Made by a program: the position numbers and the translations under genes
Shown: piece after piece, positions 14,074 to 44,574 of the stretch
How positions within the stretch are numbered: the stretch's first letter is position 1
How the letters are laid out: each line of letters opens with the position of its first letter
The notes under the pieces: model-generated
Seen by the model: the letters and a program-made list of their open reading frames with translations, nothing else
Databases searched by the model: none
Told to the model about the DNA's origin: nothing
Sequence record: MZ311865.1
DNA: 64,000 bases
Strand: one strand, 5' to 3'
Source: Escherichia phage vB_EcoM_LNA2

Positions 14074-15174
14074 TTACGCTGTGAAGATTTTATCCCACAT
14101 CGCAACAACTGCATCTCGATTATACTTCTTCCATACTGCTTCAGCACGTTTAACTCGAGCTTCGTATGTGTCAGTGAATTCTAATACAGCTTTTGTGTAA
14201 AGCGCAACTACTTCTTTCTTAGGAGTAGAGGAATCAATTTCTACACGCACAGTATCTGGGTCGTATTCGAATGTCGCATGAGGATAATCCTTAAAAACTA
14301 ACTGGATTACAGGGACACCTTTAGAGATGGCTTCAATAGAACTATTCTCTACCGTACCTGTGTCAGGACACGTATTAATAAGTGCTTTAGCTGTTTTAAG
14401 ACGTTCCATAATTTCACTGTGTGGAGCATCAATAATAACAGGATATTTAGCCGGTGGCGCCCATTTACTAGGACAGTATCCTACACCATTTTCGCCTAGT
14501 GCTTTAATCGCTTCAAGAGCAACATCAGTACGACGCATTTTAGTGTCATAACGTTGTGCACTAATAATCAGATCCGTCGCCGGAAGAACTTCTGGCTTTT
14601 CAGTCAAACAAATAACCGGATAATCTTCGGCTTCAAACAACGGATTTGCTCGCCAATAATCATAATCAATTTTGTCAGTCAGACCTGAAGTCATATAACA
14701 ATATTTGCGTTCAAATTCACGGAAGGCTTTAGTAGGAGCATAGCTCTTCCCACCATTCTTATGAATTTGAATAGTCTGGTCCCAAATTTGAACAATGCCA
14801 CGAGATACTGGTTCAAATGGTGTTGCCATAAAATTCTTATGAACTTTAGAGAGACCTGCGTCTTTAATTGCCTGAACGGTTAGTTTAGTCGGTTCCATAG
14901 TAACAACAAAATCGTATTCATGGATGCCGGCTAGTTCAACAATCTTACGAGCCATAGTATAACTCATACCTAGACTGAATTTTGTCAGATGACCAACAGG
15001 ATGATGATTAACTTTCCAATCACCAAATGTGTCATTATCAAAACCGATATAATCAATATCAGCACCGATGGACACAAGATATTTCAACACGTTCAAATGA
15101 ACCGCTTCAAGACCACCTTGTACACGTTCTGGGTTAAATGGGACTGCACGAGATGGGATAAACATAACTTTCAT
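14074..15174 (-). CDS. Glycosyltransferase-like protein (GT-B type motif), candidate DNA sugar transferase
   Basis: 366 aa; C-terminal ...DTGTVENSSIEAISKGVPVIQL... resembles GT-B E..EA..G.PVI motif; sits where T4 has gene 60/mobA. Confidence 0.55.
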   Translation of the reverse strand: MKVMFIPSRAVPFNPERVQGGLEAVHLNVLKYLVSIGADIDYIGFDNDTFGDWKVNHHPVGHLTKFSLGMSYTMARKIVELAGIHEYDFVVTMEPTKLTVQAIKDAGLSKVHKNFMATPFEPVSRGIVQIWDQTIQIHKNGGKSYAPTKAFREFERKYCYMTSGLTDKIDYDYWRANPLFEAEDYPVICLTEKPEVLPATDLIISAQRYDTKMRRTDVALEAIKALGENGVGYCPSKWAPPAKYPVIIDAPHSEIMERLKTAKALINTCPDTGTVENSSIEAISKGVPVIQLVFKDYPHATFEYDPDTVRVEIDSSTPKKEVVALYTKAVLEFTDTYEARVKRAEAVWKKYNRDAVVAMWDKIFTA

Positions 15175-26878: not shown

Positions 26879-27400
26879 TCAGTAACCATTATCCTGGCGT
26901 TCAAAGTTGTGTTGGTTTTTCAAGTAGTAAAGTTTAAAGATTTCTTCAGCGGAAAGACCAAGACCTTGGAACATATTCAGAACAAAGTGCAGAATATCAA
27001 TCATCTCGAATTTAATTTCGAGCTGGTCTTCAGGAGACAGTTCATCGATACGACGATTTCGATATTCAGCATGTTGAGCTTTCCAAGGCTTCCATACAGA
27101 GCTAGCGGCTTTTTCACCATTGCTCATACCACCAAGTGAAGTCAACAGTTCACGGAATTCATCATCAATATAATCTTTCTGATTACGCAGCCAATCAACA
27201 ACATCGCCAGCAGTGGCCAATTCGTCAGGATGTTTGTTATGTTCAGGCTTATCATTTGCCAGACGAACCTGTAAAGATTTCTGCATATCAAGCATTACCT
27301 GCAGAGGGTCTTTATCTTCATGAATCAGAGCATTAAAATAAGCTTCTTCTGCTTTATCAACACCAGAAATAAGTTGTGAACATTCGTTAAAGTGCGCCAT
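26879..27400 (-). CDS. 56: dCTP pyrophosphatase gp56 (MazG-like)
   Basis: ORF track 26879..27415; ATG 27400 gives MAHFNEC... matching recalled T4 gp56. Confidence 0.85.
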   Translation of the reverse strand: MAHFNECSQLISGVDKAEEAYFNALIHEDKDPLQVMLDMQKSLQVRLANDKPEHNKHPDELATAGDVVDWLRNQKDYIDDEFRELLTSLGGMSNGEKAASSVWKPWKAQHAEYRNRRIDELSPEDQLEIKFEMIDILHFVLNMFQGLGLSAEEIFKLYYLKNQHNFERQDNGY

Positions 27401-27490
27401 TATTTTTCCTTTCAATTCAGTATAAGAGAGTTTAATTCTAACATTAATTTTATAAAGCGTAATAAATAATAAGGTAACTAAGGAGATATT

Positions 27491-30441: not shown

Positions 30442-30690
30442 TTATTCTTTTTCGCGAATAATAATTACTTGTTGAGGCTGCTGAGCAGATTTCTTTTCGG
30501 CAACGATAGACCAAATTAAAGTTCCAATCCAACCAATCATCGTCCAGTTAAAGAGTAAAGATACAAAGAAGATTGCTGTTGTGCTTTTTGTGCCACGAAT
30601 AAGTGCGATTACCCAAGGCAACATGTAAATGATGATTGAACCAATACCTGCGATTAAAACTGCTACTGAACTAGCTACGAATAATTCCAT
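30442..30690 (-). CDS. Two-TM inner-membrane protein, possibly superinfection-immunity-like
   Basis: 82 aa; ...YMLPWVIALIRGTKSTTAIFFVSLLFNWTMIGWIGTLIWSIV...; own early promoter. Confidence 0.5.
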   Translation of the reverse strand: MELFVASSVAVLIAGIGSIIIYMLPWVIALIRGTKSTTAIFFVSLLFNWTMIGWIGTLIWSIVAEKKSAQQPQQVIIIREKE

Positions 30691-30751: not shown

Positions 30752-31120
30752 TTAATTAAATTTGTTTAAACGTTCAATACACTGGACGTAGTTATTTGCG
30801 ATTTGTTTCTGGGTAGGCTCTTTACCAGTTGTTTCAACATAGCGAATGAATGCGATTTCAGTAGCCTGTAGACAATGTTCTTTAACGCGTTGTTCTTTTG
30901 ACAATGCTACAGTATCAGAGTCACGATAACGTTGAGCATGGGCATCAGCTTGAATCATTCGATTACCTACAGTAACCGGGTCTTCCACTTCAACTTTAGG
31001 TTGGTCGTACTGTTTAACATTCGGATTGTAAATCAGTTGGCCAACGTTATTAGGGATAAAGCCATGGGCACCACATCCGGTTAATCCAAATACCATTGTT
31101 AAAGCGATTAATTTTTTCAT
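30752..31120 (-). CDS. Lipoprotein (lipobox LTGC)
   Basis: 122 aa; MKKLIALTMVFGLTGCGAHG signal peptide with lipobox; own promoter. Confidence 0.55.
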   Translation of the reverse strand: MKKLIALTMVFGLTGCGAHGFIPNNVGQLIYNPNVKQYDQPKVEVEDPVTVGNRMIQADAHAQRYRDSDTVALSKEQRVKEHCLQATEIAFIRYVETTGKEPTQKQIANNYVQCIERLNKFN

Positions 31121-33664: not shown

Positions 33665-34024
33665 TTAAAAGAATTTAAATTTTTTCTTGGTCCGTTCATT
33701 AAAAGCTTGTTGTACTTGCATTGTAATACATTTTTCAACATGCGGTGCAAGTTCTGCTTTTCTGTCCTGGTCAAGAACTGCAAAGTCCATTACGATTTTA
33801 CCATCAACCCAGTCTAGTTTTGTAATATAGACTATATGATGAGAACCATCTTCAAGTGTAATCAGAATCTCTTGAATGACATTTTCCATTGCTGAACGGA
33901 TAATTTTAAGAGATTCATTAAACACTCGTTCTTTGCGAATGTCTTCCCCTTCCGAAGAAGGGGATTCATCAACGATTTCTAGATTTAAATCATCGAGATT
34001 ATTCATCGAAATCTTCCATTTCAT
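33665..34024 (-). CDS. Gene 40-position protein, ~119 aa
   Basis: ORF track 33665..34027; overlaps uvsX 3' end; position between uvsX and 41. Confidence 0.45.
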   Translation of the reverse strand: MKWKISMNNLDDLNLEIVDESPSSEGEDIRKERVFNESLKIIRSAMENVIQEILITLEDGSHHIVYITKLDWVDGKIVMDFAVLDQDRKAELAPHVEKCITMQVQQAFNERTKKKFKFF

Positions 34025-35171
34025 CAAGGTCGTTTTCTATATCTGCTGCAGACGGAGCATCAGAAGTTTTAACCGGAACTTTAGTTGTTGCTTTGCAATT
34101 AATAAGGTCATTAACAGCGTCATCAACTTCTTTAATAGAAGAGATAGCACCTAGTTTATATTTAGTTTCAATTGCATCTCGGAAAGGTTTGTGTTTAAAC
34201 AAAGGTCCCCAGAATTCTACACAATCAGTAGCTTTAGCACGCCATGATTTTTCTTCACGAATCATTTCGCCAGTTTCTTCGTCAAGGAATTCACGAGCAT
34301 ACCAACCAGCTTTAGGCTTAACTACAAAACCAATTTCAGTTGCCATTTCTAACAAGCCACTGAATGGGTCGATACCACCATCAAAATTAACAGTGATTGG
34401 GAAAGTAGATTTTTCTTTAACGGTGCGAGATTTTTCCGCTTTCAACGTGAAGTCATAACCGGTCAATTCTGTACCTTCTTTAACCTGACGTTTAGAGATA
34501 AAAAATACCGTGTTGGCAGAATAAAGAATACCTGTACCACCACCCATAATCTCTTTAGGATACAATCCGCCGATTTCCATTGCTGTATGGTTGATTGCAA
34601 CACATGGAATATCTTTAATAGTCAGATAAGGAGTCACAATGCGGAACAGAGATTTAAGTGCCTTAGCACGAGACATATCACCTACAACTTTCTCGTTCAA
34701 TGCATCTTCAGTTTCTTTCTTAGATGCAGTATTACCGATTGAATCGATAAAGATAATAACTTTATCACCGCGTTCAATCGCGTCAAGCTGATTAGTCATA
34801 TCAACTTTAAGTTGTTCGACAGATTGAATCGGAGTATGAACTACACGGTCTAAATCAACACCCATTGAACGAAAATAAGATTCTGAAGCACCAAATTCAG
34901 AATCATAGAACAAACAAATTGCATCTTTATATTTCTTCATATATGCTGCAACCATGGTCAGCCCAAACAACGTTTTAAAGTGTTTAGAAGGAGCAGCAAA
35001 AATAGTTAAGCCTGATTGCAACCCGGCATTCAGTGCACCACCTAATGCAATATTCAACATCGGAATACGAGTAGGGACTTCATCACGATTATTAAACAGC
35101 TTAGACTTAGTCAAGTCTGCAGTCATTTTAGAAGTAGAAGCTTTAATCAGACGAGATTTTAAATCAGACAT
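33999..35171 (-). CDS. uvsX: Recombinase UvsX (RecA family)
   Basis: 390 aa; MSDLKSRLIKASTSK...; Walker A-type region; close to recalled T4 UvsX. Confidence 0.9.
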   Translation of the reverse strand: MSDLKSRLIKASTSKMTADLTKSKLFNNRDEVPTRIPMLNIALGGALNAGLQSGLTIFAAPSKHFKTLFGLTMVAAYMKKYKDAICLFYDSEFGASESYFRSMGVDLDRVVHTPIQSVEQLKVDMTNQLDAIERGDKVIIFIDSIGNTASKKETEDALNEKVVGDMSRAKALKSLFRIVTPYLTIKDIPCVAINHTAMEIGGLYPKEIMGGGTGILYSANTVFFISKRQVKEGTELTGYDFTLKAEKSRTVKEKSTFPITVNFDGGIDPFSGLLEMATEIGFVVKPKAGWYAREFLDEETGEMIREEKSWRAKATDCVEFWGPLFKHKPFRDAIETKYKLGAISSIKEVDDAVNDLINCKATTKVPVKTSDAPSAADIENDLDEMEDFDE

Positions 35172-35270
35172 TGTATTTTTCCATAGGCATCATTATATTT
35201 TACTCATGTTTAAAAGATAAGACGATTATATAATAAGGGTTATACAGCATTTAAAACTTTAAACAGGCTC

Positions 35271-35819
35271 TTAACGAGCCCATTTGATAATTTCTGTAAT
35301 CAAATTATTACGTTCGCTTGCATTAAATCCTATAACTTTGTTAGCACCATCATGATTAAGTAATTGATACGTTTGGATTTCGTTATGAATTGCAAACTCT
35401 TCAAAATATGAAATGACTGTATTAAAACCAAATGAAGACAAAGTAATAAGGTCGTCTTCAAAACTTTCAGTCATTTCGTTACGTGTTAAAATAATTGTGA
35501 ACACATCATGGTTTTGGCAAAGACGAACATAGTCCTGTTCATAAACGTCAAGAACCGAGTCCGCATCTTGTCGAATACGTCCGTAAACCCAGTTACTAAT
35601 ATATCCACGGTCTAATAGATAAATCTTAGTAGGGTCTAAATAATTCAACATCGTTTCGAAACAGCCAACTTCATTTCGAGACTTAACATCGAAACGTCCA
35701 TCAACTGTTCGTTTAGGGAAATCAATCTTTACATATCTTTCACTAATTTCCATTATGTCATTAATGAAAGTTGTTTTACCAGCATTATCTGGGCCATCTA
35801 CTAAAATAATTTTAGCCAT
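35271..35819 (-). CDS. P-loop kinase (nucleotide/nucleoside kinase-like)
   Basis: 182 aa; Walker A VDGPDNAGKTT; LLDRGYIS resembles dNK-type motif. Confidence 0.6.
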   Translation of the reverse strand: MAKIILVDGPDNAGKTTFINDIMEISERYVKIDFPKRTVDGRFDVKSRNEVGCFETMLNYLDPTKIYLLDRGYISNWVYGRIRQDADSVLDVYEQDYVRLCQNHDVFTIILTRNEMTESFEDDLITLSSFGFNTVISYFEEFAIHNEIQTYQLLNHDGANKVIGFNASERNNLITEIIKWAR

Positions 35820-35820
35820 T

Positions 35821-36720
35821 TTATTCCTCGATTACGACATCTTCATATTTAGGTATATTATACGGTGAAGAAATTAAAGCGTTAAAGTAGATGAACTCAC
35901 CAAGACCTGGATGGAATACTTCTTCAGGATTTTCGAAATATTGAATTTTCGGACGTCCTTTAAGAATTTGATAGTACTCAGTTTTAGTTGGTTTAAAAAT
36001 TCGAATCAACGCTTCTTCAGGATACTTATTTCTGTCGAAGCTATTATTTGGATCGGTTATATAAAGCGGTTGACCTAATTGAATTGCGCATTCAACAACT
36101 TGTTCAAAACGATAGCATGGGTCACTAATTCGAAATGGATGAAAAATACCATCTAGATGAATAGGAGCCAAATCACCTACAAGACGCTGCATGATGGAAG
36201 GACGTATAACTTTCTGCGTTACGATAATCTTATTACCATCTGCACCAGCGTTAACCAGCACTTCTTTTTGACGTTCATTCAACACAGTAGTTTGAAGTGA
36301 ACGATTAACCGACAACATATCGGTTTTTAAGAATTCGTCAATATAAAAACGTGGTTTATTAGGGTCTGCAGTGATATTGAAATTGAATTCCGCATCAAAA
36401 GCGCCGTCATATCCAGTGATATCTGTGATTAGAAAATCACAGTCATAATAAGCAATTAATGAATCAACCACAAATTCATTTTCAGACCAGAAATATTTAC
36501 GAGTGTTATACGCGTTATCTTTATACCATAATGGAACAAACTTAAATTCTGGAAAAAGACGTTCGCATTCTTTAATATCAGATGCATTACGTGGATATGT
36601 AATCACATCACCCGGATTAGCACGGTGCAAATGAAGTTGGAAGTTGCCATCCTTAAGGATAGCATACTGTCCAGTTTCATAAGACCGCATACTCAAGATA
36701 GGTACGCGGAAAATAGCCAT
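35821..36720 (-). CDS. Hypothetical protein, 299 aa (occupies T4 beta-gt position)
   Basis: ORF track; no recognised motif; TAATG-coupled to TS-like gene. Confidence 0.5.
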   Translation of the reverse strand: MAIFRVPILSMRSYETGQYAILKDGNFQLHLHRANPGDVITYPRNASDIKECERLFPEFKFVPLWYKDNAYNTRKYFWSENEFVVDSLIAYYDCDFLITDITGYDGAFDAEFNFNITADPNKPRFYIDEFLKTDMLSVNRSLQTTVLNERQKEVLVNAGADGNKIIVTQKVIRPSIMQRLVGDLAPIHLDGIFHPFRISDPCYRFEQVVECAIQLGQPLYITDPNNSFDRNKYPEEALIRIFKPTKTEYYQILKGRPKIQYFENPEEVFHPGLGEFIYFNALISSPYNIPKYEDVVIEE

Positions 36721-37436
36721 TAGTCAAGGAATCCTTTAACATAATCAAAATCACGTTCAAACACATGGGCACTTACCATGGTATGAGTATAATCACCAAC
36801 TTCTACACCACATTCTTTAGCGATATAATGAAGTAATTTTCCTTGGAGATAAAAATCCAACTGCATAACAACAGCACAGTTCTGAGAACGCATATGACAG
36901 TGGGTATAAAGCTTACCATCACGAATATAATAAGTCACTGAGTCAGTACATGGATATTCAAGTGTTTCGTCCGAATCAAGCAAAGCCTGATCAGAACTTT
37001 CTAGAATTTGGAACACAACTCTTCGAGAGTTAGGCTTCTCTTTAAGTTCTTTTAGAAGAGCTGGTAATTGGGCCGCAATGCGAGGACCATAGAAAGTGTT
37101 GAAGTTCGCCGGCAAAACATCTGATTTTGGTTTAGAAATAAATTTAGCGACATTAGGATATGCCTTAAACGCTTCTTCTGCGTTGGTACCACCAGAAATC
37201 ATAAACTTCCAGAAGTCTTCGGCATATTCATAAGAGATGCGGTTAATACGTGGGTCGGTCATTTTGAATGATGATGGAGTGTCAACAACTACTGTCATAG
37301 ACCCAATTTCATTACAACGTCCAATACGAGAATCAGTTACGAATTCCGGGTTTTCTAAAATTTCACGATTGACAGCTTTAAATGCGGATTGAAAATCTGC
37401 GGCTTTAATATATTTCATTGTGTTATGTTTTCCCAT
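36720..37436 (-). CDS. Thymidylate-synthase-family pyrimidine hydroxymethylase-like enzyme (gene 42 position, divergent)
   Basis: 238 aa; NSRRVVFQ, YPCTDSVTYY and MRSQN resemble recalled T4 gp42 DSRRGIMIY, FMCTNTVQY, MRSND, but overall divergent. Confidence 0.65.
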   Translation of the reverse strand: MGKHNTMKYIKAADFQSAFKAVNREILENPEFVTDSRIGRCNEIGSMTVVVDTPSSFKMTDPRINRISYEYAEDFWKFMISGGTNAEEAFKAYPNVAKFISKPKSDVLPANFNTFYGPRIAAQLPALLKELKEKPNSRRVVFQILESSDQALLDSDETLEYPCTDSVTYYIRDGKLYTHCHMRSQNCAVVMQLDFYLQGKLLHYIAKECGVEVGDYTHTMVSAHVFERDFDYVKGFLD

Positions 37437-37714
37437 GTTTACCTCAATACAATTTATTATATACTCAATTCATAAAGCTTATTTGAATTTCTTAGCGATG
37501 TTGATATAACGTAAAGCTTCAGCATCGATATTTCCAAGAACACTATGAAGAAATGCATCAGCGTAGTATTACAGTTGAACAGGTTCTTTAATCACTTTAG
37601 CCGCTTTAGTTTCAAACAGGCCCATCAGGGCCTTTTTAAGAATTTGTTCGTTAGTGTTCAGTTTCGTAGTCAAAATCTCTTCATTAAGTTGGTGGTTAAA
37701 AGTTTTTCTAGAAA

Positions 37715-38875
37715 TCATTCCGGGTACCTCAAAGCGTCATCAGAGTTAGTTATATCAATAATAGATATAGAGTTTTCTGATAACCCATTTTTAGATAACT
37801 GACGTTTATAATATCTTTCACAATATGTACACGTTGACCCACAGATTTCATTAGCACAATCGAAATCTGGATGTCTGAACCACCTTTTTTCTAAAAAGCC
37901 ATCTAACAAAGAGGTTTCAATATTTACTGTATGTGAAAACTCAGTTTCGTTTTCAAGAGTGAAAATAGTCTCTAAAGGCTTCCACAGTTCTAACAAATTA
38001 CCTTCAAACTTTTCAGAAGCGTATGCTTCAAGAACTTTCAAAATGTAGTCTGTGCTACCTGTACGTCCTGAAACTTTGAATTGAGTGATACCAATATCAT
38101 TATAAAGTTTCAAATCTTGAGGACGAACAAAACGAGTTCTCAACCAGTTAAATGGGTCTGTATCACGAGCTTTAATACAGTGCTGCATAGGATATCCGTT
38201 TAAGGATTTAGCATCATCAGCTGTAACATCAGTACTATGGAAAATATAGCAAGAGTCACGATAGCTACAATGTGTTGTATACCCTTTACCAGCATTAGAA
38301 CAGAACTCATTTACAAGAACTTCAAATATTATATTGTTCTTATTACAAAACTCTGCTGCACGCTTCAGGAAAGAAACTGAACGGTTCTTATGAATTCCAC
38401 AGCAGACCTTTTTGATATTATATTGGTCGTGCAAGTATTTGATTTGAGTTACAGCATCGACATGTAGAATTGTTGAAACTTCAATCTCAATGTCTTTATT
38501 GACTTCACGAACAATTTCCATAACAACAGGGTTAGCGATAGTAATACGCCATACGCCTATTGACCAAAGATACTGAACATAATCCTGAATAGCTTTCTTC
38601 TTCCACTCAACTAGTTCTCTTTTTGAACCAGGATTTATCGTGTTGAGTGTATAGTTAAAGCAAATACCTAATTCGTTACAACGTTTAACGTAATCTTCTA
38701 ACATCTTTTTGTCAACGTCAGGAAGCCTAAAATCAGGTCTGGCTGCTACAAAAGCCATTTCTCTTGTAGAGCCGTATACTTCGTTTATCAAGCTATTAGG
38801 ATAAGTTTTATTGAGCTCTACGATTTTATCAAGAAGAGCTAAATCAAAATTCGTTCCGATTTTAAAAGTATTCAT
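37715..38875 (-). CDS. Hypothetical enzyme with C-terminal Cys cluster, 386 aa
   Basis: ORF track; DCANEICGSTCTYCE cluster; no confident family. Confidence 0.5.
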   Translation of the reverse strand: MNTFKIGTNFDLALLDKIVELNKTYPNSLINEVYGSTREMAFVAARPDFRLPDVDKKMLEDYVKRCNELGICFNYTLNTINPGSKRELVEWKKKAIQDYVQYLWSIGVWRITIANPVVMEIVREVNKDIEIEVSTILHVDAVTQIKYLHDQYNIKKVCCGIHKNRSVSFLKRAAEFCNKNNIIFEVLVNEFCSNAGKGYTTHCSYRDSCYIFHSTDVTADDAKSLNGYPMQHCIKARDTDPFNWLRTRFVRPQDLKLYNDIGITQFKVSGRTGSTDYILKVLEAYASEKFEGNLLELWKPLETIFTLENETEFSHTVNIETSLLDGFLEKRWFRHPDFDCANEICGSTCTYCERYYKRQLSKNGLSENSISIIDITNSDDALRYPE

Positions 38876-38933
38876 TTTTTTGCATCTCGCGTTAATTGAT
38901 GCGATGGTTTTTTTGCAGGTCTTACTTAAATTA

Positions 38934-39335
38934 TTATAGATTCGGTTTATACGATTTAAATGTTTCGAATTCGCCTTTATTCATAAGAGCTTTGAATTCG
39001 TCAGGACGCATAGCTTTGTCGTCGATAATCCAATCATATACTGGTTTATGTGTTAGCAAATTATGGTACTTCAAGCCAATGTTTGCCAAGTTCTGAATCA
39101 GACTTGGGAGAATGTCAATTGCTATACGACCAGGACCTACTGACTTCATACCGCGAGCAGTGTAAAGCGTTATGGTATGCCCTGCATCATACAGAGCATT
39201 AATGGCAGACACCATTTCGGTGTCTGGTTTGAAGTTCACGTAATCACGATTGTTATTCCATTCCGTGATGCAATCATCGACATCAAAACAAAGATTAAGC
39301 ATGTTTTCTACACGGTGCATTAGATTCGTTCCCAT
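38934..39335 (-). CDS. HAD-superfamily phosphatase (KdsC/GmhB-like small phosphatase)
   Basis: 133 aa; motif I FDVDDCIT, motif II LYTAR, later K and IIDD. Confidence 0.6.
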   Translation of the reverse strand: MGTNLMHRVENMLNLCFDVDDCITEWNNNRDYVNFKPDTEMVSAINALYDAGHTITLYTARGMKSVGPGRIAIDILPSLIQNLANIGLKYHNLLTHKPVYDWIIDDKAMRPDEFKALMNKGEFETFKSYKPNL

Positions 39336-41005
39336 TGATGAGTGATATCGCCACCGATTGGACGATAGGAAACACCAGTTTCTTTATCAGTTAGTACCCA
39401 TTTACCAGGATTTTTTGTAATCAGAGTAGCCGTTACAGGTTCTGCTACGTCATAACTAATAGAGCCGTCTTGAAGTACACGGCCCATATTACGTAATTGC
39501 TTAGTCAGAAGTTCCATACCTTTATAATATGCGGCTACCGCTTTAAGTGGATTATTCTTGAAATAACCACCTAATGCAATCCAGATAATTGCTACAGCCA
39601 AATGATGATACTCGTTAAACGAACTCATCTTTCCATATTTGTAAACTAGTGGATTGATGTTAATAGTCACATTACAAGTTGTTTCGTCAATAGTAAACTG
39701 TCCCCAGGTCGGATTAGCGTTGAATTCATCATAACCTGAAACAGCATAAAGCACTTTAGCTTCATCGTACAATTTTGGCCCGTAAATCTTGGTTTCACCA
39801 AAATATCCACGAGGGTCGATAAACTTGACTTCGCCGTTATCAGTAATCATAGTATTACTGAAGTTCGGGTCGCCGTGAATAACAGAGTACTGTCCCTGAG
39901 AACGGTTATGATAACGAATAAGGTGTTCTAAAGCTTGTTTCAGCATTGGCTTCAGACGTCCAATCTTAGTGTAGTTCACATGTGTGATTTTACCAAATGA
40001 ATCAATCAATGGTTGAATGCTTTCACAACGATCAATAACTTTCGTATAGAATTCTTTAGTGAAATCACGACGAACAGTTTCAGGACTTACAAAATAAGTG
40101 TCTGTGCTGAATTTCAGTGCATCTAAAATTGCACCAACAATTTGTGGACGAGCAAGACTTGATTTGGATTTAATATATTCAAATGCCGGCTTACCTTTAA
40201 TGCGTTCCATTTCAAAGTTATTTTCATTAACAGAAACTAACTGAGGGACTGAATCTGATTTCACTTTAAGATACCATGAAATCTCATCTTTCTGAAGAGC
40301 TCGACCCTGTTCGGTTAATGCGAATTTAGTTACAGTTTCTTCACCAATTTCAACTGCATTAAAACTACGATTAAGTTCACGAACTTCATGAGCTTTTTCA
40401 AGTTTAGGCATATCACCTAAATCAATTAGATTCATAAGCTCTGATTTATTGAATGTGCTGCCGTAAAGGAATTCTACGAAATCACGTCCTTTGCAGTATT
40501 CATGAATTTCCTCATCAGTAGAACCCATATAGAATTCCCAGTCTTTGAACTGATAAATTCCTACAACATTACCACCTGTTGAACCTACGTTAGTGATATT
40601 TTCACCGTCGAAATTATATCGACATTCGTCACCCTTAACATAGATTGCGTTAACATTCCAAGACCATGAACCAAAATCGGGAATAATATCACACCAGTTA
40701 ACAATTACGTTATGGCCGTCTAAATCTTTGTGTAATTTAGCAAGAGCATAAGCAGAACCATACGCTTCATCAACTGTACGAATAGTCACATTGAACTCTT
40801 CTTGCTCACAATAAGCTCGAACAGTTTCAGCAAATTTTGAATGAACTACTACAATAATTTCATCTGCGCCAAGGTCAGAATAAATTGTATACAAATTGCT
40901 CAGAATAGTGTCTTGTTTATAGTTAACAAGCACCTTAGGAATATGATGCGTTATTGGATACAAACGAGTTGCTAATCCAGCACCAAGAATAACAGCTTTT
41001 TTCAT
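39320..41005 (-). CDS. Bifunctional sugar-1-phosphate nucleotidyltransferase / APH-type sugar kinase
   Basis: 561 aa; N-term KAVILGAGLATRL (G-x-G-T-R nucleotidyltransferase signature); C-term VIHGDPNFSNTMI...KFIDP (APH/choline-kinase catalytic motif). Confidence 0.65.
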   Translation of the reverse strand: MKKAVILGAGLATRLYPITHHIPKVLVNYKQDTILSNLYTIYSDLGADEIIVVVHSKFAETVRAYCEQEEFNVTIRTVDEAYGSAYALAKLHKDLDGHNVIVNWCDIIPDFGSWSWNVNAIYVKGDECRYNFDGENITNVGSTGGNVVGIYQFKDWEFYMGSTDEEIHEYCKGRDFVEFLYGSTFNKSELMNLIDLGDMPKLEKAHEVRELNRSFNAVEIGEETVTKFALTEQGRALQKDEISWYLKVKSDSVPQLVSVNENNFEMERIKGKPAFEYIKSKSSLARPQIVGAILDALKFSTDTYFVSPETVRRDFTKEFYTKVIDRCESIQPLIDSFGKITHVNYTKIGRLKPMLKQALEHLIRYHNRSQGQYSVIHGDPNFSNTMITDNGEVKFIDPRGYFGETKIYGPKLYDEAKVLYAVSGYDEFNANPTWGQFTIDETTCNVTININPLVYKYGKMSSFNEYHHLAVAIIWIALGGYFKNNPLKAVAAYYKGMELLTKQLRNMGRVLQDGSISYDVAEPVTATLITKNPGKWVLTDKETGVSYRPIGGDITHQWERI

Positions 41006-41033
41006 GTTGTGGTCCTCATTGGTAAGTAGGTGT

Positions 41034-41058
41034 ATTGTACACTATTCTAGTTAAAGCA
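41034..41058 (-). promoter_or_regulatory. Middle-promoter-like element (MotA box TGCTTTA, 12-nt spacer, TACAAT)
   Basis: Minus-strand AATGCTTTAA-N12-TACAAT about 30 nt upstream of the nucleotidyltransferase/kinase gene. Confidence 0.45.
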
Positions 41059-41190
41059 TTCATACTTTGCTTGTAGTCCAATCATAATCCATCCAATTAC
41101 AAGTGTTGGAATCATTACTGGAGCCGTTAAGCTCCAGTAGATAGTCATGGCAAGCATCAATAGTAAAAGTCCTATTGTTATTGCTTTCAT
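41047..41190 (-). CDS. Small hydrophobic protein, 47 aa (not in ORF track)
   Basis: Hand translation MKAITIGLLLLMLAMTIYWSLTAPVMIPTLVIGWIMIGLQAKYECFN; ATGA overlap with SIS gene. Confidence 0.35.
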   Translation of the reverse strand: MKAITIGLLLLMLAMTIYWSLTAPVMIPTLVIGWIMIGLQAKYECFN

Positions 41191-41822
41191 TGTTCGCCTC
41201 GTAACATGGCACCTAGTGCACCGCCTGGATGGAACTTAAGGAAGTCATTAGAGGTAAATCCACGTTCAGACGAAAGGTTGATAGCAAACGTATCGATAAG
41301 CGCTAACAACAATGTAGTGGACATAGTCGGAGCCAGAGAATTCTCATCAACCTCTACCGCGATGCCTGTACAGAAAGAGTAATCAAAAAGGGCTTCATTT
41401 TCTTGTGGAATGTCTGGGTTACAATGCAACAGAATCTGTTTGACGTTCGGTCGAATCATTTTAAGATGCTTAGCCACGCCTATCATTTCTTCAGTTTTAC
41501 CAGAACGACTAATATGAATCAACACATCATTAGGCGCAATGAATCCTGCATCACCGTGAGAATAATGCCCAGTGTTCAAGTACATACTCGGGATACCGAG
41601 TGAAGCAAATGTCTCAGAAGCTTTAGTTGCAATATTAGCATTCTTACCAACACCTGTAATAATTACTCGGCTTTCATAATTACTAAGTCCCGGGCGTCGA
41701 AGAGTTTCTAGAATAGCATTATAACGAGCAGGGTTTTGACTAATTACTTTGGCCATAGCGGCCAAAGAAGAAGCTTGTTTTATGATTGCGTCAATAGCGA
41801 TAGTAATAGGAGTAGTTTTCAT
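41187..41822 (-). CDS. SIS-domain sugar-phosphate isomerase, KdsD/GutQ arabinose-5-phosphate isomerase-like (no CBS domains)
   Basis: 211 aa; GVGKN...TFASLGIPS...HGD.G...ISRSGKTEE...LAPTMSTT...FHPGGALG parallels E. coli KdsD SIS domain as I recall it. Confidence 0.65.
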   Translation of the reverse strand: MKTTPITIAIDAIIKQASSLAAMAKVISQNPARYNAILETLRRPGLSNYESRVIITGVGKNANIATKASETFASLGIPSMYLNTGHYSHGDAGFIAPNDVLIHISRSGKTEEMIGVAKHLKMIRPNVKQILLHCNPDIPQENEALFDYSFCTGIAVEVDENSLAPTMSTTLLLALIDTFAINLSSERGFTSNDFLKFHPGGALGAMLRGEQ

Positions 41823-41862
41823 ATTTCTCTCATTTAATTAGTTTACCGTCCATGGCATTATA

Positions 41863-44574
41863 TCAAAAATCGAACATATCGAACAGAGATGCTTTCTTCT
41901 CGTAATCGAGTTTCGCTGCTGATGTGAATCCTTCAAGTGGTTTAATAAATGTCTTCTCAAGGAGAACAGTGTAGTCCATCCAATGAAGTACATCGTCTTT
42001 AATTAAATCTGTGATTTCAGTACCAGAAGGCCATGCGATACATTTATCACCGAATGGGTTTCCTTCACGTAAAGGCAGAACATATACTTTTTCACCTTCT
42101 ACAACTTGTGGTGCATCGATATTACCTTTGATAGCCCGGTTATACGTCAGAATTCCACGAATATGGAACGGGCATTTAGGACCAGGGAATCCACCGACGT
42201 CATATTTAGCAATGTTATTCGCAGAAGATACCGACGCGATGCTAATATAATTCAATTGACGGAATTCTTTTTCAAACTCTTTAAAATATTCTTGTAATGA
42301 TTCTTCACCTTCTTGAAGCATACGACGAATACATTCTTTAAGAGCTTTCTGTACTGCTTTAGGAGTCGAAGATTTCTGAGTCTCTAGACCCATGATTTTG
42401 AGTTTAGGCTCAGCGTAACGAGTACCTTCCATATCCCACACGTTTAATGCATAACGTTTCTTACCAGTCCAAAATCCGCCAATACCTTTAGAACCGAGTG
42501 GAGGCCCAGCGATAGCTTCTCGGTCCATGAACATTAAGTGTTGTTTATTGTTCATGTATTCACACATTTCACGGAAACCTCTATCAATAGCAGGTTCCAT
42601 ACGTTCATGTGCAAACTTATCTAAGAAGTCTACCCAATGGTTGGTATCACGGAATTTAGATTCACCAACCTTATCAATAATTTTATCTGCAGATACGTAA
42701 ATGGAGTCTGTATCACCATATAGAACGAAAGCTTCACCTTCTGTACCACAAACTTCATTCAGATATTCATTAACTTTACGTTCAATCCACTGTAAAGCCA
42801 TTTGCCCGAATGTTGTGATTGCAGTAGCATTACGCAAATCATAATAACGGAACCAAACGTTTCCAAGTGCACCATAAAGCGAGTTGATGAGCAATTTACG
42901 GTTAATCTGTGCAGTCATACCTGCAACTTCAGTACGTTGAGCTCTAAACAACATTTCATTAAGAGATTTAGCAGACAACTTTTTAATCTTTTCTTTAATC
43001 TCGTCAGTGAAGTCGAAACGATAATCAACATCTAATGGTTCGTCAACAGAAAGATTAGGATTATGCAATGCCTCTTTAATTATTTCACCATTACGTTGAG
43101 CTGCAAGCATGTAACCTTTATGTTCTTTACGTTGATTAAAGACCTTAGTGATTTCAGTTGGAACTACACCATCACGGTCTTTATAATACATCATGCCGTT
43201 AGGAGAACAACTGTACACATCAGAAGGACGTTCAGCAACAGCGTTAATATAATCATGCAATGGAGCTACTTTAAACGTTCCTGCTATTGTTTCTGGGCTA
43301 ATATTCACTTGGCGAATGATGCTTGGATACAGAGATGTAAGGTCGAAACTCATTACATATTTGTATCGATTTGGAATAGGTTCCTTAACAAAAGCGCCAG
43401 GATAAGGTTGAACCGGGTGAGAACGACCTTGTGGAATCACCTTGTTCTGCTCTTTAAGGCTATTAAAAATAATAGCATCCCATGTTTTAATTGGACTAAA
43501 CACAGATTGAATCTGTATCTTAGCATAATAACCCATGTCCAAACTCAAGTTGATGAACTGACGCTTAGCATCAATTTGCAATACACGATACACGTCGATA
43601 ATGTTATAAGAAATATATCGTTGGTGATTGCTTTCACGAAGCTTAGAAATAGGGCCGTCATATTTCAGTTTACCAACGTTCAATTCAAATTCTGAAATGT
43701 AATCCAGAGAATACGACGGTTGATTGGTAAAAGAGAATTTTTTGTAAAGGTCAATGTAATCAAGAACAGAGATACCGAACAATGTAATGATTTCACGAGA
43801 ACCATACATGTTTTCGATAACTTTAACACGAGTTTTACGATGTGGTGATAAACGTTTCGCAGTAGATTCGCCAAAAATATTCTTGATTCGGTTATACACA
43901 TATGGAATATCAAATGACTCAACGTTCCATCCAGTCAAAATGACAGGAGTTTTCTGTTGCCAGAAGTTGAGATATTCCATCAACAATTCTTTTTCGTTAT
44001 CGAACGGCATATAAATGATTTTATCGATAATTTCAGATGGAACTTCATCACCACCTTGTTCTTGAAGTTTAGCAGCGATTTCAATAGACCATTCTTCTAC
44101 ATTACCGTATGGAGAATTCAATAGATCAAATACGTAGAACCTGTCGTCAATTGAGTCATAATGGGTGATAGCATCAATCGGATGTTTTGCTTGTGACGGC
44201 TCAGGGAACCCATCTGGAGATGTTACTTCGATGTCGAAGTTAGCCACACGAATTTTTGTATGGTCGTATTTGATTTCATAGTTATAAGTGTCAGACAAAT
44301 ACGCCAATTTGAAATCGTCCATGCCAAGTGCTTCAAGTCCGATATCTTCCATGCGTTTAATCCATTGGGAGGCATCACGCATATTAGCGAACAACTTACG
44401 AGTACACGGCTTACCGTAGATATCGAAATATTTCGTAGCCTGACTTTCCGGACAATGAGCAAACAGTGATGGTTTATATTCTACTTCACGAGTACGTTCA
44501 CGGCCATTAGAATCGATGTAACGTTCAAAAATTGAATCACCAATCTGTTCAACCGTTAAGTAAAATTCTTTCAT
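41863..44574 (-). CDS. 43: DNA polymerase gp43 (family B)
   Basis: 903 aa; exo motifs FDIE; pol motifs DxxSLYPS and YGDTDS. Confidence 0.95.
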   Translation of the reverse strand: MKEFYLTVEQIGDSIFERYIDSNGRERTREVEYKPSLFAHCPESQATKYFDIYGKPCTRKLFANMRDASQWIKRMEDIGLEALGMDDFKLAYLSDTYNYEIKYDHTKIRVANFDIEVTSPDGFPEPSQAKHPIDAITHYDSIDDRFYVFDLLNSPYGNVEEWSIEIAAKLQEQGGDEVPSEIIDKIIYMPFDNEKELLMEYLNFWQQKTPVILTGWNVESFDIPYVYNRIKNIFGESTAKRLSPHRKTRVKVIENMYGSREIITLFGISVLDYIDLYKKFSFTNQPSYSLDYISEFELNVGKLKYDGPISKLRESNHQRYISYNIIDVYRVLQIDAKRQFINLSLDMGYYAKIQIQSVFSPIKTWDAIIFNSLKEQNKVIPQGRSHPVQPYPGAFVKEPIPNRYKYVMSFDLTSLYPSIIRQVNISPETIAGTFKVAPLHDYINAVAERPSDVYSCSPNGMMYYKDRDGVVPTEITKVFNQRKEHKGYMLAAQRNGEIIKEALHNPNLSVDEPLDVDYRFDFTDEIKEKIKKLSAKSLNEMLFRAQRTEVAGMTAQINRKLLINSLYGALGNVWFRYYDLRNATAITTFGQMALQWIERKVNEYLNEVCGTEGEAFVLYGDTDSIYVSADKIIDKVGESKFRDTNHWVDFLDKFAHERMEPAIDRGFREMCEYMNNKQHLMFMDREAIAGPPLGSKGIGGFWTGKKRYALNVWDMEGTRYAEPKLKIMGLETQKSSTPKAVQKALKECIRRMLQEGEESLQEYFKEFEKEFRQLNYISIASVSSANNIAKYDVGGFPGPKCPFHIRGILTYNRAIKGNIDAPQVVEGEKVYVLPLREGNPFGDKCIAWPSGTEITDLIKDDVLHWMDYTVLLEKTFIKPLEGFTSAAKLDYEKKASLFDMFDF

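Follow-up and report, generated by a model that had tools for sequence, protein, structure and literature searches.

A predicted 5-hydroxy-dCMP synthase in the gene-42 position of Escherichia phage vB_EcoM_LNA2, and a candidate oxygen-independent hydroxylase encoded nearby

Here, we propose that an open reading frame (ORF) of Escherichia phage vB_EcoM_LNA2 encodes a 5-hydroxy-2'-deoxycytidine-5'-monophosphate (5hodCMP) synthase, a deoxycytidine monophosphate (dCMP) C5-hydroxylase of the thymidylate synthase (TS) superfamily. The ORF lies at 36720-37436, on the minus strand, of a 64,000-nucleotide stretch of sequence record MZ311865.1 (the whole of which we call the window). It has an ATG start with a GAGG Shine-Dalgarno sequence 7 nucleotides 5' of it, specifies 238 amino acids, and is orthologous to RB69 gp48 (ORF048c) and to the HY126 protein of PDB entry 9IQC. 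We hold this assignment to be correct with a probability of roughly 93%, based on homology to the TS fold, an asparagine at residue 186, the residues C163, D194 and E160, 98% identity to a verified member of the family, and a surrounding cluster of glycosyltransferase and nucleoside diphosphate (NDP)-sugar genes. The function of such synthases is already known from the literature of 2025-2026, and what the window adds is one member with conservative substitutions and a clean annotation. The gene had earlier been read from the DNA letters alone (the sequence-only reading) as a hydroxymethylase, either swapped or fast-evolving, that might have a different substrate or product from dCMP hydroxymethylase of phage T4 (gp42).

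Over 6.7 kb around the synthase gene, the window is 98.4% identical in DNA to RB69, and the same region is nearly fully covered by 151 other phage records. Proteins of the window are 98-100% identical to their RB69 counterparts. On the strength of these DNA and protein identities, we assign the window to an RB69-like Mosigvirus. The synthase itself is 98.3% identical to RB69 ORF048c over 238 residues, with 4 substitutions (S17T, N85D, V107A and K207N), and 97.9% identical over 238 residues to the homolog from HY126, with 5 differences; the HY126 sequence is exactly that of the chain in PDB entries 9IQC and 9IR2. The substitutions relative to RB69 and HY126 are conservative and fall at positions 17, 31, 85, 87, 107 and 207, none of them at a signature site. 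The characterised proteins (PDB 9IQC, 9IR2 and 9IQU) and the window enzyme are also alike in their signature residues, gene order, and flanking arabinosylation genes.

The activity of the RB69 enzyme has been described in detail. The DNA of RB69 and of Acinetobacter phage DLP3 contains mono- and poly-arabinosylated 5-hydroxycytosine, in which the sugar is ether-bonded directly to C5 (Lee et al., NAR 2026, PMC13326640). When RB69 gp48 was expressed in E. coli together with a phage deoxynucleoside monophosphate (dNMP) kinase, 5-hydroxy-deoxycytidine (5hodC) appeared in the DNA; growth under 18O2 made the product heavier by 2 Da, the oxygen coming from O2 (PMC13326640). The purified protein was yellow and released flavin mononucleotide (FMN), and its 5hodC product had a retention time unlike that of the 5-hydroxymethyl-deoxycytidine (5hmdC) made by T4 gp42 (PMC13326640). 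An asparagine at the position of Asp169 in E. coli thymidylate synthase, ThyA (D169N), is considered diagnostic, and 9 further D169N homologs, including that of Rhizobium phage RL38JI, gave 5hodC (PMC13326640). A crystal structure of the HY126 protein with flavin and an O2-dependent reconstitution in vitro are attributed to He et al. (Nat Chem Biol 2026, as cited in PMC13326640), and a 2026 survey of Durham Collection phages makes the identical assignment for Mosigvirus. By homology to RB69 gp48 and HY126, the window protein would be expected to bind flavin and to form 5hodCMP in an O2-dependent manner. The label "hydroxymethylase" does not suit a protein whose near-identical homologs make 5-hydroxy-dCMP with O2 and flavin, and not 5-hydroxymethyl-dCMP with methylene-tetrahydrofolate (methylene-THF).

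Membership of the TS family, as claimed by the sequence-only reading, is borne out by a match to the Pfam model Thymidylat_synt (PF00303) at E 1.8e-15 and 57 bits (gathering cut-off 24.3). The three motifs that it quoted are present, namely NSRRVVFQ at residues 136-143, YPCTDSVTYY at 161-170 and MRSQN at 182-186, and they align to DSRRGIMIY, DFMCTNTVQY and MRSND of T4 gp42. A sequence search of the PDB returned TS matches at 5e-13, with the best scores outside the synthase's own family going to a bacterial TS (52.7 bits) and to the CMP 5-hydroxymethylase MilA (47.7 bits). The protein ends about 45 residues short of the ThyA C-terminus and the C-terminal segment that closes over folate is missing. 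The start of the protein is ambiguous within 37419-37436: Mosigvirus proteins begin MGKHNTMKY, and the homologs of JS98, Winklervirus and Acinetobacter phages begin at the equivalent of Met7. The PDB construct 9IQU is N-terminally shortened and begins at Asn5, and the first six residues of the synthase may be dispensable. Over 475 phage records found by tblastn, homologs are labelled variously as "thymidylate synthase", "dCMP hydroxymethylase", "deoxycytidylate 5-hydroxymethyltransferase" or "hypothetical protein", and for the D169N group most such labels have since proved incorrect.

To locate the functional residues, the window protein was aligned with its homologs from RB69, JS98, Acinetobacter phage Konradin and Rhizobium phage AF3, with T4 gp42, and with E. 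coli ThyA, whose numbering was mapped onto the others. A second alignment (MAFFT) held 25 sequences, adding 15 Straboviridae homologs from IMG/VR and the canonical TS of a locus designated L036. Cys163 (codon 36948-36950, on the minus strand like those below) is the predicted catalytic nucleophile, equivalent to ThyA C146 and T4 gp42 C148, in agreement with the earlier suggestion that the cysteine of YPCTDSVTYY is catalytic. Asp194 (codon 36855-36857) corresponds to ThyA N177 and T4 gp42 D179 and is predicted to select cytosine over uracil (the role of N177 is cited in PMC13326640). Glu160 (codon 36957-36959) corresponds to ThyA L143 and T4 gp42 D145, and the putative phosphate-binding residues Arg138, Arg139 and Arg183 correspond to ThyA R126, R127 and R166 and to T4 gp42 R123, R124 and R168. 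Asn186, the last residue of MRSQN (codon 36879-36881), stands in the place of ThyA D169 and T4 gp42 D171 and is the residue diagnostic of 5hodCMP synthases. Phe75 (37212-37214) is aligned with ThyA E58 and T4 gp42 E60, and Ala97 (37146-37148) with ThyA W80 and T4 gp42 W82.

Read at ThyA positions E58/W80/R126/R127/L143/C146/R166/D169/N177, the pattern in the 25-sequence alignment is F/A/R/R/E/C/R/N/D in 23/23 members of the family, down to 33% identity. T4 gp42 has E/W/R/R/D/C/R/D/D, and both ThyA and the L036 enzyme have E/W/R/R/L/C/R/D/N. Comparison with gp42 residue by residue, a check put forward in the sequence-only reading, therefore gives a divided answer, in that C163 and D194 are conserved and E60, W82 and D171, the gp42 residues of folate chemistry, are replaced. 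By this mapping, the enzyme keeps its nucleotide-activating apparatus and its cytosine selector and has lost three folate-chemistry residues that gp42 retains. F75 and A97 may be additional markers of that loss, depending on the alignment.

Could the gene instead encode a genuine thymidylate synthase, converting dUMP to dTMP? The best Pfam and NCBIfam matches are to TS models, many phage records label the homologs in this way, and the window enzyme has a homologous core, a cysteine nucleophile and an arginine phosphate clamp in common with ThyA and other TS. However, NCBIfam TS models score it far under their curated cut-offs (69.7 against 174.6, for example). It differs from ThyA by N177D, L143E, D169N, E58F and W80A and by its shorter C-terminus, and the canonical TS of L036 shows the contrasting E/W/L/D/N. 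Substrate, cofactor and product would all differ from those of ThyA. We practically discount a TS function.

A second alternative is that the 5hodCMP synthase assignment has the wrong nucleotide, and that the protein is a hydroxymethylase or hydroxylase of dUMP, or a MilA-like enzyme acting on CMP. MilA (PDB 5JNH/5B6D) is a TS homolog specific for a cytosine nucleotide, is among the best full-length PDB matches (residues 14-237, E 1.7e-11) and the best of them outside the synthase family, and is the top structural neighbour in Lee et al. (PMC13326640). MilA differs in acting on a ribonucleotide, in depending on folate, and in yielding a hydroxymethyl product. Asp194, at the N177 position, specifies cytosine, so dUMP is not a likely substrate; the published assays in vivo recover 5-hydroxy-deoxycytidine in DNA (PMC13326640); and the phage carries a dCTPase that feeds dCMP. 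We regard another substrate as extremely unlikely. As to the suggestion of a different substrate or product, the product part is upheld, with 5-hydroxy-dCMP being made by near-identical homologs (PMC13326640), and the substrate part is not, with Asp194 keeping the specificity for cytosine.

The relation to T4 gp42 needs closer consideration. Over 218 amino acids, BLASTP finds 25% identity between the synthase and gp42 as given in the T4 record; high identity, which would have spoken against divergence, was not seen in this alignment. The neighbouring proteins are far closer to their T4 counterparts, with identities of 86% for gp41, 83% for gp46, 82% for gp47, 79% for Dda and gp39, 78% for gp44 and gp45, 74% for gp61 and gp62, 72% for gp56, 68% for UvsX and 62% for gp43. 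By these comparisons, the divergence noted in the sequence-only reading (25% against 62-86%) is real and is confined to the synthase gene among T4-like neighbours. Its placement in the gene-42 position is likewise confirmed, as the synthase gene is located in the interval from uvsX (33999-35171) to gene 43 (41863-44574) and has a DNA glycosyltransferase gene directly downstream, as in T4, where the order is uvsX, segA, beta-gt, 42, imm, imm.1, 43.

One might thus see the protein as a diverged gp42 ortholog, a methylene-THF-dependent dCMP hydroxymethylase whose 5-hydroxymethyl-dCMP is then arabinosylated, which was the view of RB69 in 2018. The gene-42 slot is kept, as is its adjacency to a DNA glycosyltransferase gene. 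With gp42 (PDB 1B5D/1B5E), the window enzyme has in common the TS fold, the catalytic cysteine, the phosphate arginines, the cytosine-specifying aspartate, an acidic residue at ThyA 143, the short C-terminus and a dCMP substrate. In addition, a note in the RB69 record reads "similar to dCMP hydroxymethylase", and Thomas et al. 2018 worked on the assumption of a gp42 homolog. Yet at 25% identity gp42 is no closer than ordinary TS: in a search of PDB sequences, gp42 scores 29.8 bits to 9iqc and 31-43 bits to ordinary TS, and it is not among the 60 best PDB sequence matches of the synthase. Tequatrovirus genomes are mostly missing from the 475 tblastn matches. Moreover, gp42 keeps E60, W82 and D171 and adds CH2OH from methylene-THF, whereas the window enzyme has F75, A97 and N186 in their place (the first two being alignment-dependent) and, by homology, would add OH from O2 via flavin; the 98%-identical RB69 enzyme made 5hodC with 18O from O2 (PMC13326640). 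We consider a diverged gp42 very unlikely.

The distances of the synthase to gp42 and to TS are roughly equal. It is therefore not a drifted gp42, nor simply a fast-evolving one as the sequence-only reading suggested. The equal distance, together with a signature in common with Rhizobium phage enzymes of 33% identity, is consistent with an old and separate branch of the TS superfamily that has come to occupy the gp42 slot. Other genes of the region are also placed differently from T4. The genes imm (30445-30690, minus strand) and imm.1 (30755-31120, minus strand), which in T4 are located between 42 and 43, lie here, as in RB69, beyond gene 41 near sp and 61.x, and their T4 slot is occupied by arabinose-nucleotide genes. 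For a 36-residue ORF at 41050-41157 (RB69 ORF054c), the RB69 record notes similarity to the T4 42-imm intercistronic region.

Several points weigh against the 5hodCMP synthase assignment. It rests on 98% identity to characterised proteins, and the statement on flavin in the crystal (He et al. 2026) is second-hand via Lee et al. (PMC13326640). The older view, from the first study to find arabinose in RB69 DNA, assumed a gp42-type hydroxymethylase and took the base to be arabosyl-hydroxymethylcytosine (Thomas et al. 2018, PMC6024577). Finally, the equivalences of E58 with F75 and of W80 with A97 come from an N-terminal alignment of about 20% identity that may be off by a residue or two, and E73 and D74 directly precede F75.

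What might the reaction and its pathway be? The gp56 dCTPase (26879-27415, minus strand; 72% identical to T4 gp56) would convert dCTP to dCMP, both supplying the substrate and removing dCTP. In the synthase, Cys163 would add to C6 of dCMP, making C5 nucleophilic, with Asp194 selecting and activating cytosine and Arg138, Arg139 and Arg183 holding the phosphate. C5, instead of attacking the iminium ion of methylene-THF, would be hydroxylated by an oxidant derived from flavin and O2, and the oxygen would probably be transferred by attack of the C5 carbanion on a flavin C4a-hydroperoxide, as TS-family and flavin monooxygenase chemistry would suggest. Cys163 would then be eliminated and 5hodCMP released. 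A phage dNMP kinase and the host NDP kinase would raise 5hodCMP to 5hodCTP, which the phage polymerase would insert in place of dC. After replication, two arabinosyltransferases (35821-36720 and 14074-15174) would add arabinose to the 5-hydroxyl, using UDP-arabinose made by an isomerase (41187-41822), a bifunctional kinase/uridylyltransferase (39320-41005) and a phosphatase (38934-39335).

The synthase gene would thus mark the phage DNA as carrying arabosylated 5-hydroxycytosine and not glucosylated 5-hydroxymethylcytosine. Arabosylation alters which restriction, CRISPR and type IV defences can attack the DNA, and which enzymes can cut or sequence it. The synthase also exemplifies the recruitment of a folate-enzyme scaffold to hydroxylation by flavin and O2. 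All of these points are already in print for RB69 and HY126.

The genes for these further steps, all on the minus strand, surround the synthase, and all the RB69 arabinosylation parts are present and intact in the window. DNA arabinosyltransferase 1 (RB69 gp46:47; assigned from Table 1 of PMC13326640) is a 299-residue ORF at 35821-36720 whose ATG overlaps the synthase stop codon (TAATG), and it is followed at 35271-35819 by a Tmk-like nucleotide kinase (RB69 gp45) that is 98.9% identical to the RB69 protein and is described in PMC13326640. On the other side of the synthase lie a HAD-type phosphatase (RB69 gp51, AfhF-like) of UDP-arabinose synthesis at 38934-39335, assigned by comparison with RB69 and from PMC13326640, and, at 39320-41005, a 561-residue bifunctional sugar kinase/nucleotidyltransferase (RB69 gp52:53, AfhE-like) with Pfam NTP_transferase and kinase-like matches (PMC13326640). 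The arabinose-5-phosphate isomerase (RB69 gp55, by RB69 annotation) at 41187-41822 is 100% identical to RB69 over 194 residues. The second DNA arabinosyltransferase (RB69 gp3; PMC13326640 Table 1) lies apart at 14074-15174 and is 99% identical to RB69p003. No homolog of beta-glucosyltransferase was found in the window. A scan of 35100-41900 for promoters and terminators gave 23 sites against 26.1 expected from shuffled sequence, and so no excess.

Two of these genes are split in the RB69 record, arabinosyltransferase 1 as ORF046c/047c and the bifunctional enzyme as ORF052c/053c. Each is a single ORF here, which lends support to the published opinion that sequencing errors produced the splits in RB69.

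Two genes upstream of the synthase, at 37715-38875 on the minus strand, lies a gene for a U32-family protein (RB69 gp50). The likeliest reading of this protein, which we propose tentatively and at somewhat less than even odds, is a pyrimidine C5 hydroxylase that depends on prephenate and not on O2. It would back up the TS-like enzyme in enterobacterial phages and take its place altogether in others, among them many uncultivated phages. It could be an iron-sulphur (Fe-S) protein acting on a deoxynucleotide or on DNA. RlhA and TrhP, which are U32 proteins, hydroxylate C5 of cytidine and uridine. Parallels to a pair of analogous enzymes are UbiI/H/F and UbiU/V in ubiquinone synthesis, and TrhO and TrhP in the synthesis of 5-hydroxyuridine (ho5U) in tRNA. 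The hydroxylations by RlhA, TrhP and UbiU/UbiV are O2-independent; prephenate has been shown to donate the oxygen in the case of UbiU/V and is implicated for RlhA and TrhP (PMC10990095, PMC6747719). RB69 gp50 appears in Lee et al. only as a "sugar or heterocycle reductase" and is not taken up in their text, although their Discussion does name RlhA and TrhP, hydroxylases of pyrimidines in RNA, as unrelated pathways (PMC13326640).

The window protein is a genuine but distant member of the U32 family. It matches Pfam Peptidase_U32 at 7.3e-11 and 42.2 bits (cut-off 22.4), and its AlphaFold2 (AF2) model (pLDDT 90.5) has as its best PDB fold match the U32 protein 5d88. BLASTP and phmmer comparisons with E. 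coli UbiU, UbiV, TrhP and RlhA gave no significant similarity, and a sequence search of the PDB returned nothing at E<1. Across 32 homologs of 46-85% identity, 10 cysteines and 1 histidine are invariant (C158, C177, C192, C203, C209, H213, C233, C340, C345, C349 and C352). Of the canonical Fe-S motif CX6CX15CX3C (or CX6CX15CX3/4C), only C192 and C209 align; in contrast to canonical U32 hydroxylases, the phage protein has the other two motif cysteines replaced by nearby cysteine or histidine residues and carries an extra C-terminal CX4CX3CX2C. It has the U32 domain and fold in common with TrhP, RlhA and UbiU/UbiV, and further points of resemblance are its cysteine clusters, which are invariant within the phage family, and its genomic link to prephenate-making enzymes.

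This last link comes from the distribution of the gene. The U32 protein is present in 221 GenBank phage records, all from Enterobacterales or Shewanella hosts, and was not seen among the Acinetobacter and Rhizobium phages that have the synthase, nor in E. coli Dhakaviruses such as JS98. A rule by which phages of facultative anaerobes have U32 and those of aerobes do not was considered and is only partly upheld, with the E. coli Dhakaviruses being exceptions and phylogeny a confounder. In Erwinia phage Virsaitis27, a true chorismate mutase gene (Pfam CM_2, 1.7e-11) stands between the U32 gene and the synthase gene. Chorismate mutase occurs in 54 phage records, adjoining the U32 and synthase genes wherever annotation or coordinates were checked. 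In a survey of 50 IMG/VR loci anchored on the synthase, it was present at 13/16 loci with U32 and 0/34 without (Fisher p = 1.6e-9, for loci that are not phylogenetically independent).

Beyond Straboviridae, U32 homologs of 40-58% identity were found at 32 viral loci of uncultivated phages. A gene like that of the 5hodCMP synthase was present within about 10 kb at 0/32 of these loci, one of which has a canonical TS, and none of their IMG/VR contigs came up in a scan of the whole collection for MRSQN-type synthases. About 20 of the 32 carry a glycosyltransferase of the arabinosyltransferase-1 family, often directly upstream of U32 (E to 1e-16 against the window protein), and about 11 carry an AfhE-like enzyme, mostly with arabinose-5-phosphate isomerase. 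At other loci, U32 is found beside dCMP deaminase, Tmk-like kinases, NT5C, deoxynucleoside kinase and nucleoside deoxyribosyltransferase. Two loci (L045 and L048) are arranged as glycosyltransferase, isomerase, AfhE-like enzyme, Tmk-like kinase, a fused DAHP synthase-chorismate mutase, HAD phosphatase and U32, the fusion matching DAHP_synth_1 at 3.9e-25 and 2.5e-36 and CM_2 at 5.4e-20 and 7.9e-18, respectively. At another (L016), a DAHP-synthase-family gene comes directly after U32.

Three configurations are therefore seen, synthase only, U32 only, and both, and a glycosyltransferase of one family, that of arabinosyltransferase 1, can accompany any of them. Genes of the prephenate pathway go with U32 and not with the synthase. 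Such a pattern would be expected of two analogous enzymes that supply one hydroxylated base. On the other side, a TS-like gene could sit beyond the 10-kb flanks, the cysteine motif departs from the canonical one, phylogeny confounds the host pattern, and the U32 protein might act on something else in the pathway.

If U32 is such a hydroxylase, the phage would be able to make 5-hydroxycytosine DNA in a gut host without oxygen, where a flavin/O2 enzyme cannot work. It would provide an oxygen-independent route to hydroxylated DNA bases and would explain why phages carry chorismate mutase and DAHP synthase genes. In turn, the phages predicted to have glycosylated 5-hydroxypyrimidines would extend to many without a TS homolog near their U32 and arabinosylation genes. 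In the searchable literature, nothing was found that links U32, prephenate or chorismate mutase to arabinosylation phages or to 5-hydroxycytosine; He et al. 2026 and Mahler et al. 2025 lie outside that reach and may have priority. The U32 lead may be new.

Between the U32 and synthase genes, at 37569-37718 on the minus strand, is a truncated small ORF, the homolog of RB69 ORF049c. It has 49 residues against 79 in RB69, being shortened by a TAA at 37569-37571 in place of the RB69 GAA. The homolog in HY126 has 40 residues, and shortening apparently extends to several other Mosigviruses, whose matches come in two pieces or cover residues 1-47 only. RB69 ORF049c always adjoins the U32 gene. The idea that it is a degenerate chorismate mutase was rejected: it has neither a Pfam or NCBIfam match nor BLAST similarity to the Virsaitis27 chorismate mutase, and Yersinia phage TG1 and Serratia phage 92A1 carry a chorismate mutase and an ORF049c homolog side by side.

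Finally, two of the metagenome contigs with U32 (L014 and L015) have, at a distance of a few kb from the first U32 gene, a second, more divergent U32-like gene that follows a radical SAM/SPASM gene. Their neighbourhood includes NT5C, a nicotinamide mononucleotide (NMN) transporter, deoxynucleoside kinase and nucleoside deoxyribosyltransferase.

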